Assembly (NCBI GenBank): GCA_964447495.1
Contig: CAYUTF010000042.1
Span: 1-26,886 of the forward strand
Direction of reading: 5' to 3'
From: an uncultured archaeon
GTDB taxonomy: Archaea; Asgardarchaeota; Lokiarchaeia; Sigyniarchaeales; SOKP01
Length of the DNA stretch: 26,886 bases
Shown: in pieces, positions 3,338-9,287 of the stretch
Numbering within the stretch: the first letter of the stretch is position 1
Layout of the letters: each line of letters begins with the position of its first letter
Translations under genes and position numbers: made by a program
Notes under the pieces: generated by a model
Databases searched by the model: none
Told to the model about the DNA's origin: nothing
What the model saw: only the letters and a program-made list of their open reading frames with translations

Positions 3338-4264
3338 TTAATTTTCTTCTGATTCTTGCTTCTTCATTCGGAGCTTAATAACTTTAAGTGCAAAATTTAT
3401 GACTTCCTCTATATTATCCCAGCGTCCCTCGTCTAGTTTTCTTTTTATCCAATAAAAGAGATCTTGCTCAATAGGAATGGTAGTATAAATAGGTTGAGTT
3501 AATTGAGCTTCTTTTGAATGAGCTTTATTTTGAAGCCAAGAGATAATATTTGAAATTAGGCTAAAGTTATCAACCGCATTGATCCCATAACTATCATGAA
3601 ATCCTGAAAAGATTGACAAATTACCTAAGACTACAACTTTTCCTAAATTATAATGAATTGCTGCTATGATAGGCTGGCTTTTTACTGGTTCCTCGAGCCA
3701 TTCCTCATCATTAAATATCTTATGCCAAGAAGATTCTTCAGAAGAGAAAGCAATTGGATTTACATCAATATTTTCATTCTCAACCGATTTATCTATTTCT
3801 AATGTGCATCCCCCGGAATGAATTATCTTATTAATATCTCTAGTAATAAAATGCTTGGCAAAATGAGTAATTGTTGGTCTTGAATTTTCTTCAGAAGCAT
3901 TATCGTGTTCAAAAAGCTGATCAGAATTGATTTTTACTCCAAAATGCTGAGTCAATTCATTTAAATTACTCTTATTCTCATAATCACCGCCTTTATCAGC
4001 TACAATTAGTAATGAACCTCCATCATTCACATATTTAACAAGATCTTCTACTTCTTCAGGACTCAGATAAGATTCAGCAATAGGAACTCCAATTATAAAT
4101 ATATTGTATGCGGATAATTTTTCATAATTGAGCCCTGCTTCAATCTTCCCTAATTTCAAATTGGAATTAAATAAAAATTCGATAAAATCATTAAATCCAG
4201 GATCTTCAATTATTAATTTATTTTTATGGGAATAGTCGAACCCAATATTAAATTCGGTACTCAT
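3338..4264 (-). CDS. GIFT (GldG/IFT52, DUF4350-like) domain protein with a C-terminal ribbon-helix-helix domain
   Basis: GIFT-like segments IGFDYSH, KYVNDGGSLLIVADKGG, NLNELTQHFGVKINSD, GKVVVLGNLSIFS and DNFSLISNIISWL. The C-terminus TIPIEQDLFYWIKRKLDEGRWDNIEEVINFALKVI fits the ParD/CopG-type RHH pattern. Confidence 0.75.
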   Translation of the reverse strand: MSTEFNIGFDYSHKNKLIIEDPGFNDFIEFLFNSNLKLGKIEAGLNYEKLSAYNIFIIGVPIAESYLSPEEVEDLVKYVNDGGSLLIVADKGGDYENKSNLNELTQHFGVKINSDQLFEHDNASEENSRPTITHFAKHFITRDINKIIHSGGCTLEIDKSVENENIDVNPIAFSSEESSWHKIFNDEEWLEEPVKSQPIIAAIHYNLGKVVVLGNLSIFSGFHDSYGINAVDNFSLISNIISWLQNKAHSKEAQLTQPIYTTIPIEQDLFYWIKRKLDEGRWDNIEEVINFALKVIKLRMKKQESEEN

Positions 4265-4339
4265 AGATACTTAGGTTATTCTTCACTTTCAATTTATTAT
4301 AATGATATTATTTTATTATTTTAAAAAATTACTTTAATT

Positions 4340-4696
4340 ATGATAAAAAAAAATTATCACGAAGTAGAGAATAAAGGAGCAACATTAAGTGATGGTACTC
4401 CTGTAAAAGATGTAAATGTAAGGTGGTTAATAGATAATAATGATGGAGCGAAAAATTTTGCTATGAGAATGTTTGAAATTAAGCCTTTTAGTAATGTACC
4501 TCTCCATAATCATTGGCAAGATCATGAAATTTTCATTTTAAATGGAAAAGGTAAATTTTATAATGATGAGGGAGAATCATTTAATGTTCAGACTGGAGAT
4601 GTATTGTATATTCCTCCCAATGAGAAACATGGAATAGAAAATAACGATGAAGAAACCCTCAAATTTTTATGTTTAATCCCATATCTTAAAGAGTAA
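4340..4696 (+). CDS. Cupin-domain protein
   Basis: Cupin motif 1 PLHNHWQDHEIFILNGKG and motif 2 GDVLYIPPNEKHG; also GAKNFAMRMFEI. Confidence 0.92.
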   Translation: MIKKNYHEVENKGATLSDGTPVKDVNVRWLIDNNDGAKNFAMRMFEIKPFSNVPLHNHWQDHEIFILNGKGKFYNDEGESFNVQTGDVLYIPPNEKHGIENNDEETLKFLCLIPYLKE

Positions 4697-4718: not shown

Positions 4719-7172
4719 TTAATCTTCATCTTCTTGTGTTATTTGTTGGGTGCATTTTCCAATTGCAACTACGTAATCTCCTTCATATAATTTTATTACG
4801 CGAACCCCTTTAGCTTTTCTGTGTGTTATACGTATTGAATCTACAGGTACTCGAATTACCTGCCCTTGTTCTGTACCAATTAAAATATCCATATGCTTGG
4901 CAAGTTTAATAGCAATGACTTTATCTTTCTTTTTTTGGTCTAAAGTTATATTTTTTACTCCTTTAGCAGCTCTACCTGTCTTTCTATATTCTTTTACTGT
5001 AGTTCTTTGCCCATAACCATTTTCTGTTAAAGTCAAAATAATAGAATCATCACTAACTAATAATGTATCAATAATTTCATCTCCTTCTCTTAGTTCGGCA
5101 CCTTTTACACCCATTGATGTCCTTCCTAATTCTCTTAATTCAGATTCATCAAACCTTACAGCATACCCTAATTTTGTTGCGATAAATATATCTTCTAATT
5201 CATTTTTTAATCTCTTCACGCTAACAAGTTTATCATCTGCTCTAATTCTTTGAGCTCTCACTCCCGTACTTTTAAATTTAGAGAATAATTTAAGAGGCGT
5301 CTTCTTAATTATCCCATTCTTGGTTGTCATTAATAGCATTTCATTTGTATTGAAATTATTGATAGGGATCATTGAGGAGATGTTTTCACCATCTTGTAAT
5401 GCCATAAAATTGATTATTGGTTTTCCTCGAGCTGTTCGGGTTTGTAAGGGAATATCGAAACATTTAATTGAATACACTCGTCCTTTAGAAGTGAAAATTA
5501 GGATTGTGTCATGAGTGGAACATACAAATAAATCGATAATAAAATCTTCCTCACGTATAGTCATACCTTTCTTTCCACGACCACCTCTTCCTTGAGTTTT
5601 ATATTCTTCAACAGAGATTCTTTTTATGTATTGATTATTTGTAAAAATAACCATTGTTGGTTCTTTTTTAATTAAATCTTTCCGTTTTATTTCATGTACT
5701 TCTTCTTCTATGAGCAGAATTTCTGTTCTTCTCTTATCTCCATACTTTTTACTTAATTCACTTAATTCTGATTTAATAATATCTAATCTAATTTTTCTGC
5801 TCTTCAATATTTTATTATATTCTGTGATGTTATTATTCAAGGTTTCTTGTTCTTCCTTCAATTTTTGCTGTTCAAGATTCGTTAATTTTGAAAGAGGCAT
5901 ACTCAAGATAGCTTGTACTTGAAGATCGCTTAATTTATATGCTTTTTTTAAATTATTTTTTGCATCTTGTGTATCTTTCGAGGTTTTAATGATATTTACA
6001 ATATTATCAATATCATTAAGCGCAATTAAAAGACCTTCAACTAAATGTACTCTAGCTTGAGCTTTCTTTAAAAGGAATTCAATCCTCTTTTGAACGATAA
6101 TCAATCTAAAATCGATATACTCTTGGATTAATTCTTTTAGAGAGAGAATTTTAGGTTGTTTTCCATCGTTTATTAAGACAAGATTAGTTATGTTAAAGGT
6201 GGTTGATAACCGTGTTCTTTTATAAAGTATATTTTTTACTATAATTGGTTGTGCATTTTTAGATAAATCCAATACAATTCGCATACCTTTTTGATCAGAT
6301 TCATCACGCAAATCTTTTATGTCTTTTAATACACCATCTTTTATCAGTTTAGCAATTGACTCAATTAATACCGTTTTATTTACTAAATAAGGTATCTCTG
6401 TGATTATTAAGCTTGTAATTTTGCCATTTGTTTCAGTTTCAATTCTTCCGCTAAGATTGACTGTTCCTGTCCCCGTTGAGTAAGCATTGTAAACACCATT
6501 AGTACCTGAAATTATTCCACCTGTTGGAAAATCGGGTCCTTTAATTAACTCCATAAGTTCTTCGATTGATATACTTGGATCATCAATTGTAGCAATGATT
6601 GCAGTACACACTTCAGTTAAATTATGGGGTGCCATGGTTGTTGCCATGCCAACCGCGATACCTTTAGTTCCATTAATTAGAATATTAGGAAGTTTTGCAG
6701 GTAAAAACTTAGGTTCAACTGTAGATTCGTCAAAATTAGGTTGGAACTCGACGGTTTCTTTATCTATATCTTCTATAAGCTCATTTGCTATTTGAGATAA
6801 ACGTGCTTCTGTATATCTGTAGGCTGCGGGGAGATCCCCATCAATAGAACCAAAATTTCCCTGCGGATGTATTAAAGGATATCTTAATGAAAAATCTTGA
6901 GCTAATCTAACGAGAGAATTATATACTGCTGCATCTCCGTGAGGATGGAAATTCCCTAATGTTTCTCCGACAATTTTAGCACATTTTACATGAGCACTAT
7001 TGTAATTCCAGTTATTTGTGAGCATAGCATAGATAATGCGTCTATGTACGGGTTTTAGGCCATCTCTTACGTCCGGTATTGCCCTTCCGACGACTACAGA
7101 CATAGCATAATCGATATAACTACTTTTCATCTCGTCCTTTAATAATATATCTTCAATCTGTTCTGAAATCAA
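4719..7172 (-). CDS. gyrA: DNA gyrase subunit A
   Basis: YAMSVVVGRAIPDVRDGLKPVHRR, HPHGD, AAYRYTEARL (catalytic Tyr), GPDFPTGG, GyrA-box QGRGGRG and C-terminal pinwheel repeats. TTG at 7172 follows an SD-like GAGGT, so it is preferred over 7211. Confidence 0.97.
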   Translation of the reverse strand: MISEQIEDILLKDEMKSSYIDYAMSVVVGRAIPDVRDGLKPVHRRIIYAMLTNNWNYNSAHVKCAKIVGETLGNFHPHGDAAVYNSLVRLAQDFSLRYPLIHPQGNFGSIDGDLPAAYRYTEARLSQIANELIEDIDKETVEFQPNFDESTVEPKFLPAKLPNILINGTKGIAVGMATTMAPHNLTEVCTAIIATIDDPSISIEELMELIKGPDFPTGGIISGTNGVYNAYSTGTGTVNLSGRIETETNGKITSLIITEIPYLVNKTVLIESIAKLIKDGVLKDIKDLRDESDQKGMRIVLDLSKNAQPIIVKNILYKRTRLSTTFNITNLVLINDGKQPKILSLKELIQEYIDFRLIIVQKRIEFLLKKAQARVHLVEGLLIALNDIDNIVNIIKTSKDTQDAKNNLKKAYKLSDLQVQAILSMPLSKLTNLEQQKLKEEQETLNNNITEYNKILKSRKIRLDIIKSELSELSKKYGDKRRTEILLIEEEVHEIKRKDLIKKEPTMVIFTNNQYIKRISVEEYKTQGRGGRGKKGMTIREEDFIIDLFVCSTHDTILIFTSKGRVYSIKCFDIPLQTRTARGKPIINFMALQDGENISSMIPINNFNTNEMLLMTTKNGIIKKTPLKLFSKFKSTGVRAQRIRADDKLVSVKRLKNELEDIFIATKLGYAVRFDESELRELGRTSMGVKGAELREGDEIIDTLLVSDDSIILTLTENGYGQRTTVKEYRKTGRAAKGVKNITLDQKKKDKVIAIKLAKHMDILIGTEQGQVIRVPVDSIRITHRKAKGVRVIKLYEGDYVVAIGKCTQQITQEDED

Positions 7173-7217
7173 ATTTATAACCTCAATTATGGATGGTGAT
7201 AAAAATAACAAAAATTA

Positions 7218-9287
<2,070 letters not shown>

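Follow-up and report, generated by a model that had tools for sequence, protein, structure and literature searches.

The GIFT domain is said to have been first described by Beatson and Ponting in 2004. The families ABC_transp_aux (GldG type, PF09822), DUF4350 (PF14258) and OST48 typically occur in exported or membrane complexes, and in IFT52 of Chlamydomonas residues K130 and R204 mark a conserved surface patch that binds IFT57/38. The N-terminal domain of IFT52 (IFT52N), according to the available part of its structural description, has a class I amidotransferase-like fold without catalytic residues and with no apparent sugar binding (PMC4818760); the accessible part of a second study presents it as a protein-binding platform for IFT88 and IFT57/38, followed along the chain by an IFT88/IFT70-binding region and then by a C-terminal IFT46-binding domain (PMC9753473). 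The window analyzed here is a 26,886-nucleotide (nt) stretch of DNA from an uncultured Lokiarchaeia archaeon of the order Sigyniarchaeales (assembly GCA_964447495.1, contig CAYUTF010000042.1, positions 1 to 26,886). On its reverse strand it carries an open reading frame (ORF) for a protein of 308 amino acids (aa) in which a GIFT domain is followed by a tail with a ribbon-helix-helix (RHH) fold, hereafter the GIFT-RHH protein. This architecture, a GIFT domain and an RHH tail in one soluble protein, had been proposed in an earlier reading of the DNA (the original prediction) and is confirmed. Prediction and comparison together support the two folds, the geometry of the dimer, the retention of the fusion within one order of Lokiarchaeia and an operon, and it is tentatively proposed that the protein is an RHH-dimerized regulator of the one-component type or a DNA-anchored adaptor. 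The protein, soluble, acidic and about 35 kDa in mass, may work as a homodimer, a point held with the same reserve as the proposal to which it belongs.

The ORF exists as predicted, and every motif quoted for the protein is found in its translation. An ORF scan gave an open frame of just 310 codons, so that there is no room for a signal peptide or a longer N-terminus, and in no 19-residue window does the Kyte-Doolittle mean rise above 1.27, indicating that the protein lacks a transmembrane-like segment; both absences had been read correctly from the sequence and set the protein apart from ABC_transp_aux, DUF4350 and OST48, with which its N-terminal domain shares a superfamily. The best-matching Pfam family is IFT52_GIFT (PF23355), at 45.4 bits (E 6.9e-12, cut-off 27.2), in a match that spans residues 32-117 and profile positions 25-108 of 246. 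ABC_transp_aux comes next at 38.3 bits, and DUF4350, at 25.2 bits, falls below its own cut-off. A phmmer search of PDB sequences with the GIFT-RHH protein returned IFT52 chains only (best E 3e-8), a profile of 51 family members reached IFT52 at E 2.4e-16, and an HMMER alignment to mouse IFT52 contains the colinear motifs that the original prediction had cited for human IFT52. The 51-member alignment was used to build an AlphaFold2 model, which has a mean predicted local distance difference test (pLDDT) score of 88.8 and a predicted template modeling (pTM) score of 0.86. With this model, Foldseek placed the IFT52 N-terminal domain first (5fms_B, E 7.5e-16, target TM score 0.84-0.89) and OST48 second. 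VIA-align superposed model residues 4-261 on IFT52N (5fmr_A) with Z 28.1 and a root-mean-square deviation (rmsd) of 2.2 Å over 218 of 242 residues at 21% identity, followed by OST48 (Z ~20), site-1 protease (Z ~19) and two Salmonella cytoplasmic amidotransferase-like proteins (Z 17). By these matches and the model, the N-terminal part up to about residue 257 is, as had been claimed, a GIFT domain, and its fold is class I amidotransferase-like. A further claim, of export or membrane anchoring for most GIFT proteins of prokaryotes, does not agree with the nearest relatives: among the 130 nearest cluster representatives of at least 200 aa, 102 have no hydrophobic 19-aa window at or above 1.8.

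The tail was modeled alone from a 40-row family alignment (in the tail numbering used for contacts below, position 13 is T262). The model, with a pLDDT of 91.5, shows an extended stretch and then two helices. The five top Foldseek matches, which comprise ParD2, ParDE1, PrpA and a ParD, superpose at rmsd 0.8-1.7 Å with target TM scores of 0.75-0.86, and their E-values are just 0.1-0.7, as expected at 45 residues. In an independent wide search with VIA, the first 32 rows are nearly all RHH proteins. The ParD-type structures 7b22 (ParD2), 5ceg and 7ycv (PrpA) reach Z 6.5-6.9 at rmsd 1.2-1.5 Å over 49-52 residues, ParD2 being the best (Z 6.9, rmsd 1.2 Å, 49 of 49 residues, 24% identity), and the list also includes TacA, CopA, NikR, ORF56, omega, PutA, AmrZ, MazE, ParG and Arc. 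A Z of about 7 is not decisive by itself; the tail is judged to be an RHH because the VIA list is uniform and the whole domain is covered. The G-R-[YW]-type loop before helix B is one that we take to be ParD-like. Two copies of the tail are predicted to pair, with interface scores (ipSAE) of 0.65, 0.65 and 0.63 versus 0.00 for the best of three controls, a partner pLDDT of 79 or more, and 94% or more of the contacts common between runs. In calibration, 20 of 30 proteins solved as pairs reach the mark used, versus 1 of 23 solved as single chains. An antiparallel ribbon about T262 is formed by the closest contacts (13:13, 15:11 and 16:10/11), helix B pairs with helix B (43:43, 40:43, 44:40), and helix B also touches the partner copy at its helix A and its strand. 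The predicted geometry is that of a canonical RHH dimer, intertwined as in the ParD antitoxins, and the tail thereby passed the dimer test that the original prediction had proposed for it. By fold and predicted dimer, residues 258 to about 300 are clearly a ParD-like RHH.

The fusion extends well beyond this assembly. A word-indexed search returned 265 relatives at E ≤ 1e-3; among the 120 of these matches that were listed, lengths are 303-323 aa, identities are 67-100%, all carry a precomputed PF23355 assignment, and the source names are Lokiarchaeota or Promethearchaeota, with a few Thorarchaeota labels and one probably mislabeled bacterial bin. An exhaustive search of 50%-identity representatives gave 654 proteins at E ≤ 1e-3, and in the best 150 of these a profile search found the tail in 25, of which 18 had served to build the profile and 7 had not. 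When the tail profile was run on 400 genomes of the window's phylum, it matched 144 of the 153 genomes of the window's order (the window's own genome excluded): 125/134 in the window's family (f1), 1/1 in f2, 14/14 in f3 and 4/4 in f4. It matched none of seven genomes in other families of the class. Given this distribution and the 73 related loci found by a scan with the close-family alignment, the fusion is not an assembly artifact. Beyond the order the profile gave weak matches only, and those inspected are small standalone ORFs of 49-91 residues. One of them, a 49-aa ORF in another Asgard lineage (L085, 1462-1611, reverse strand; tail profile 31.8 bits, hhalign probability 95%), may represent the free-standing kind of RHH from which the tail derives. 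Pfam assigned no RHH family to three such ORFs from other Asgard genomes, this one included, and to this one it assigned no family of any kind.

Two forms of the family occur, a short one of about 308 aa and a long one of about 370-650 aa. Many genomes of the window's family hold both a short copy (306-340 codons, ~80-98 bits) and a long copy (405-452 codons, ~70 bits); the sister family f3 shows long frames only among the matches listed, and the window's own genome, which is 98.4% complete, holds the short copy only. In long-form members of 384-645 aa the RHH is followed by long, charged, partly coiled-coil sequence with short conserved motifs. These low-complexity tails (P0123-P0134, P0149, and L076 4001-5182) share two recurring short motifs, an acidic one around '...I(M/I)..L..IT.G..G' and a C-terminal one, '...A(L/F).S(M/L)GS(I/F)(D/E)(D/E)F..K(I/L)..FK', which have the look of short linear interaction motifs. 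Flanking the long-form paralogue are genes for Trm5/TYW2, an RNA-methyltransferase-like protein, endonuclease III and a rhomboid protein; these look like ordinary housekeeping genes and give no functional lead.

In the mechanism proposed, two non-catalytic GIFT domains would be clasped by the C-terminal ParD-like RHH, whose strands would pair antiparallel about T262. The RHH ribbon would then bind DNA, the GIFT domain would serve as the ligand- or partner-binding part, and the YfcE/Vps29-like phosphodiesterase encoded by the next gene would be the obvious candidate target or partner. To our knowledge, DNA binding is shared by nearly all characterized RHH modules. In 36 of 40 family rows a T, N or S occupies the central outward position of the ribbon, as in the nine RHH_1 regions of the window's own genome, and the net charge of the RHH core is 0 (family median 0, range -4 to +4), within the -2 to +4 of those nine regions. 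Several observations weigh against the proposal. Some concern the identity of the tail: the success of the dimer prediction may partly stem from the model's memory of solved RHH dimers; Pfam assigned no family to the tail at E ≤ 1 or E ≤ 10, and among 40 family tails it gave ParD_antitoxin in two (best E 0.038), nothing being significant; the tail profile found no match at E ≤ 10 among PDB sequences; and none of the curated RHH models (RHH_1, ParD_antitoxin, TIGR02606) reaches its cut-off. Others concern DNA binding itself. All nine own-genome RHH_1 regions carry a helix B motif [RK]-x-x-x-[IL]-R, where the tail has I285...N290 instead, with Asn for the helix B Arg, and an outward ribbon position is Pro in the short form. 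The whole protein is acidic (pI 4.83, net charge -21), and the long-form paralogues have long acidic tails that are unusual for archaeal DNA-binding regulators. Upstream inverted repeats are not enriched, being present with arms of at least 6 nt in 22/39 loci versus 103/190 AT-rich control pieces of the same loci, and with arms of at least 7 nt in 7/39 versus 41/190; in the window itself, no inverted repeat upstream of the gene reaches perfect arms of 6 nt. The NCBIfam ParD model TIGR02606 does match the tail weakly (E 0.0026, 17.8 bits, cut-off 46.2), and the tail profile, run against 5.8 billion proteins of 29-114 aa, found three fragments that belong to the GIFT-RHH family itself and no named RHH standing alone. 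The assignment of the tail to the ParD/CopG type stands by fold and predicted dimer and does not stand by curated sequence models.

Many of the same observations would suit a dimeric scaffold without DNA binding, in which the RHH only dimerizes and the GIFT domains, like those of IFT52 and OST48, act as platforms for protein interaction that may hold the phosphodiesterase or other partners. IFT52N is itself a non-enzymatic platform in the available parts of its descriptions (PMC4818760, PMC9753473). The net negative charge, the loss from the tail of the two basic helix B positions and the lack of enrichment of operator-like repeats upstream all favor a scaffold. So do the long forms, which add 100-350 charged low-complexity residues with short conserved motifs, as is typical of scaffolds, and the strong conservation of the GIFT-RHH protein (54-77% identity where GyrA has 69-84%). 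Against a scaffold stand the DNA binding of nearly all RHH modules known to us, the polar T/N/S residue kept at the dyad position of the ribbon, and the charge of the RHH core, which lies inside the range of own-genome RHH_1 domains; moreover, the partner is only a candidate. Since the signs for and against DNA binding are mixed, a DNA-binding regulator or adaptor is favored with hesitation, and a purely structural dimer is regarded as a serious possibility of only slightly lower rank.

Possible operators were also sought in the upstream DNA. The 75-nt intergenic region of the window contains weak AT-rich inverted repeats only. The 9-mer ATAATATCA is enriched upstream (9/39 versus 1/114), in close relatives only; it was rejected as an operator as it is confined to those relatives and sits at the place expected of a promoter. 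Directly upstream of a 60%-identical orthologue (L078, ~3830-3937) there are three copies of a ~44-nt direct repeat, each with the 16-nt imperfect palindrome CCTTGATATCACAAGG, and a related palindrome, TTGATAT..ATATCAA, occurs upstream in a few other loci (L018, L022). Both the repeats and the palindrome are absent from the window.

The original prediction had offered two readings, a one-component regulator with a GIFT sensor or an RHH-dimerized archaeal relative of a ciliary transport core subunit. An RHH-dimerized regulator or scaffold stands, whereas kinship with the ciliary subunit holds at the level of the superfamily only. That the GIFT-RHH protein might be the specific archaeal orthologue, or a direct precursor, of the IFT-B core subunit IFT52 is an inviting idea. 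The two proteins share the whole-domain fold (5fmr, 5fms), colinear motifs and a cytoplasmic location. IFT52N is the best solved match, 8 Z units over the next family, and PDB sequence matches at E < 1e-3 are all IFT52. A DUF4350-type representative (P0215) scores 27.5 bits on mouse IFT52N, below the 36.8 bits of the GIFT-RHH protein. In a survey of 151 genomes of the window's phylum with at least 85% completeness, IFT52_GIFT-type ORFs above the Pfam cut-off were found in 134, versus none of 14 well-known control genomes. However, the evidence on the other side makes such orthology very unlikely. Significant sequence similarity is limited to the first ~90 residues of the domain, the first third of the profile, and in many other GIFT proteins of prokaryotes the similarity to IFT52N is as great or greater. 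Of 57 distant prokaryotic GIFT relatives scanned with Pfam, 54 match IFT52_GIFT, 47 with it as their best family, at scores of 28 to 100 bits, and 39 exceed the GIFT-RHH protein; P0159, from the set of 57, scores 60.6 bits against mouse IFT52N (5fms). Among 12 long-form members of the GIFT-RHH family itself, ABC_transp_aux is the best family in six. In a feature search of the ESM Atlas, the top entries are the protein's own cluster (106 members, automatically named putative IFT52 GIFT domain-containing protein) and a 421-residue cluster; bacterial and other archaeal GIFT clusters come next, and the eukaryotic IFT52 cluster stands at rank 26 with 0.87. The GIFT-RHH protein ends at residue 308, with its RHH (258-300) standing where IFT52 has its IFT88/IFT70- and IFT46-binding regions, as far as the available text of PMC9753473 describes them, and Pfam found IFT52 families beyond the GIFT domain neither in the scanned relatives nor, at E ≤ 1, in the GIFT-RHH protein. 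The RHH form is, in addition, restricted to one order, and the solved structures against which it can be compared include no prokaryotic cytoplasmic GIFT protein of the closer kinds. The claim that the N-terminal domain is closer to IFT52 than generic GIFT domains are was thus borne out by the best solved structure and by the comparison with the DUF4350 type, and for the most part contradicted by the other comparisons.

We read the IFT52_GIFT family as modeling, in practice, cytoplasmic GIFT domains generally, which appear to be common among the relatives of the GIFT-RHH protein, and we read the RHH-bearing family as an apparent order-level offshoot among GIFT proteins, not the branch nearest IFT52. 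What links the GIFT-RHH protein to IFT52 appears to be a common superfamily and fold and not a specific ancestry. Most of the Asgard IFT52_GIFT matches form the start of frames of 390-510 codons, about the length of IFT52, and a relative of IFT52 is better sought in this Asgard-wide family than in the RHH form. The window's own genome also holds two cytoplasmic GIFT paralogues without an RHH, both of which match IFT52 in the PDB. One (L002, 487-1848, reverse strand, contig C34; 453 aa, IFT52_GIFT 47.9 bits) has a long C-terminal extension that ends in a coiled coil; the other (L003, 1462-2427, forward strand, contig C89; 321 aa, 31.2 bits) has a C-terminal coiled coil.

The amidotransferase-like fold also raises the question of catalysis, with the GIFT domain an active amidotransferase- or hydrolase-like enzyme and the RHH an oligomerization tail. 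True glutaminases (PDX2, YaaE, anthranilate synthase) do align to the model in VIA-align, at Z 13-14, residues H138, S217, S220 and Y226 are nearly invariant across the diverse family, and C153 is invariant in the close family. Yet the nucleophile elbow position, as placed by inference and not by superposition, reads D-K-G-G-D with no Cys, C153 is replaced in some family members, Pfam and NCBIfam matched no enzyme family, and IFT52N, the closest structure, is described in the available part of its source as lacking catalytic residues (PMC4818760). An enzymatic role is accordingly considered very unlikely.

The features of the locus are collected in Table 1.

Table 1. Features of the GIFT-RHH locus, with positions in the window.
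Feature	Position	Strand	Basis
GIFT-RHH ORF (P0001), 308 aa + stop	3338..4264	(-)	Translation; 265 homologues at E ≤ 1e-3
GIFT / class I glutamine-amidotransferase-like domain, residues 1-~257	3494..4264	(-)	Pfam PF23355, AlphaFold2 model, VIA, Foldseek
RHH beta-ribbon strand, residues 258-266, predicted dyad T262	3467..3493	(-)	Dimer contacts; alternating hydrophobic/polar columns in tail alignment
RHH helix A, residues 267-278, with nearly invariant W272	3431..3466	(-)	Full and tail models, tail alignment
RHH helix B, residues 285-307, after G-R-W-D-N loop, nearly invariant N290	3344..3412	(-)	Models, alignment, helix B:helix B contacts
YfcE/MJ0936-family (Vps29-like) metallophosphoesterase, 182 aa	2738..3286	(-)	Pfam Metallophos_2 106.8 bits; NCBIfam YfcE 89.6 bits
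AT-rich divergent intergenic region, 75 nt, presumed promoters	4265..4339	.	Between GIFT-RHH and cupin genes
cupin_2 gene, 118 aa, divergent, conserved neighbor	4340..4696	(+)	Pfam Cupin_2 52.9 bits; opposite strand upstream in 55/73 loci
gyrA (830 aa) + gyrB (672 aa) adjoining locus	4719-9236	(-)	Position kept: gyrA 54/73, gyrB 32/73 loci

The remaining genes of the window are ordinary metabolic and housekeeping genes. Gene order (gyrB, gyrA, divergent cupin, GIFT-RHH gene, metallophosphoesterase) is widely kept among the 73 loci, and the metallophosphoesterase, at 66 loci, is the neighbor found most often. It should be noted that many of these loci end at contig edges, so that missing neighbors are partly technical; five loci with more distant copies (L065-L068, L076) are without this synteny. 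In the window the phosphoesterase gene starts 51 nt past the GIFT-RHH stop in the same orientation. In all 65 loci where both ORFs were called, it lies on the same strand as the GIFT-RHH gene; the two overlap in 26, are 0-60 nt apart in 32 and 61-300 nt apart in two, and in five (L008, L010, L012, L023 and L062, between about 4930 and 5940) about 1 kb separates them. From this arrangement the two genes are predicted to form an operon, which is probable. Compared with PDB sequences, the phosphoesterase matches Vps29 (E 1.2e-12) better than MJ0936 (E 5.9e-8). Its translation shows the D-x-H, G-D, G-N and G-H-x-H motifs, so that its metal-binding motifs look intact and it is expected to be active.

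A tight two-gene operon, together with ParD antitoxins as the best fold matches of the tail, could suggest a ParD-type antitoxin-like module of a toxin-antitoxin or defense system with the phosphodiesterase as effector. The tail, however, lies C-terminal to a 257-residue domain and not at the N-terminus, and it scores under every curated ParD or RHH sequence cut-off. No ParE or other toxin is found nearby, the neighbors being the YfcE phosphodiesterase and the cupin, and PADLOC gave no match for the GIFT-RHH protein and three neighbors. Unlike mobile toxin-antitoxin loci, the pair is fixed in the chromosome beside gyrB-gyrA across the whole family. We therefore regard an antitoxin role as highly improbable. 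A more far-reaching picture would join the operon to the eukaryotic systems: a two-part adaptor, made of an IFT52N-like GIFT platform (RHH-dimerized and perhaps DNA-anchored) and the Vps29-like phosphoesterase, would be a prokaryotic forerunner of the use by IFT-B and retromer of these non-catalytic or near-catalytic folds as assembly hubs, with the Asgard-wide GIFT proteins of 390-510 aa as the broader family from which IFT52 arose. We consider this a long shot.

Among described RHH proteins, a regulator or adaptor of the proposed kind would have its nearest counterparts in NikR, where the RHH is joined to a metal-binding domain, and in PutA. Both combine an RHH dimer with an effector or partner domain, and their RHH domains match the tail at Z 5.6-6.1. 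HicB antitoxins, too, have an N-terminal domain followed by a C-terminal RHH. None of the two-domain RHH regulators described in the searched literature has a GIFT domain, and DNA binding by the GIFT-RHH protein is a prediction. The GIFT-domain literature that was found concerns IFT52, OST48/DDOST or site-1 protease; a search covering mainly journals outside subscription, and judged for the most part by title or abstract, found among the papers listed no description of a GIFT and RHH fusion, of archaeal GIFT proteins or of IFT52 in Asgard archaea, in keeping with the earlier remark that the architecture was not known as described. Both domains are known, and the family is already automatically labeled as IFT52 GIFT domain-containing in databases. 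What is new, as far as has been searched, is the union of a GIFT domain with a ParD-like RHH, fixed in one Asgard order, placed in a predicted operon with a Vps29-like phosphodiesterase and left unannotated by the curated models scanned.

These results correct an attractive over-reading of the GIFT-RHH protein as a clue to the origin of cilia. Because GIFT domains of the IFT52 type occur widely, in Asgard archaea as in other prokaryotes, this protein alone says little on that origin. Should the RHH bind DNA, the family would represent a new class of regulator, of the one-component kind and with GIFT as its sensor, and a tractable prokaryotic model for the GIFT fold, which is poorly understood outside IFT52 and OST48. 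If it does not, the family would show the RHH in use as a pure dimerization clasp for a scaffold.

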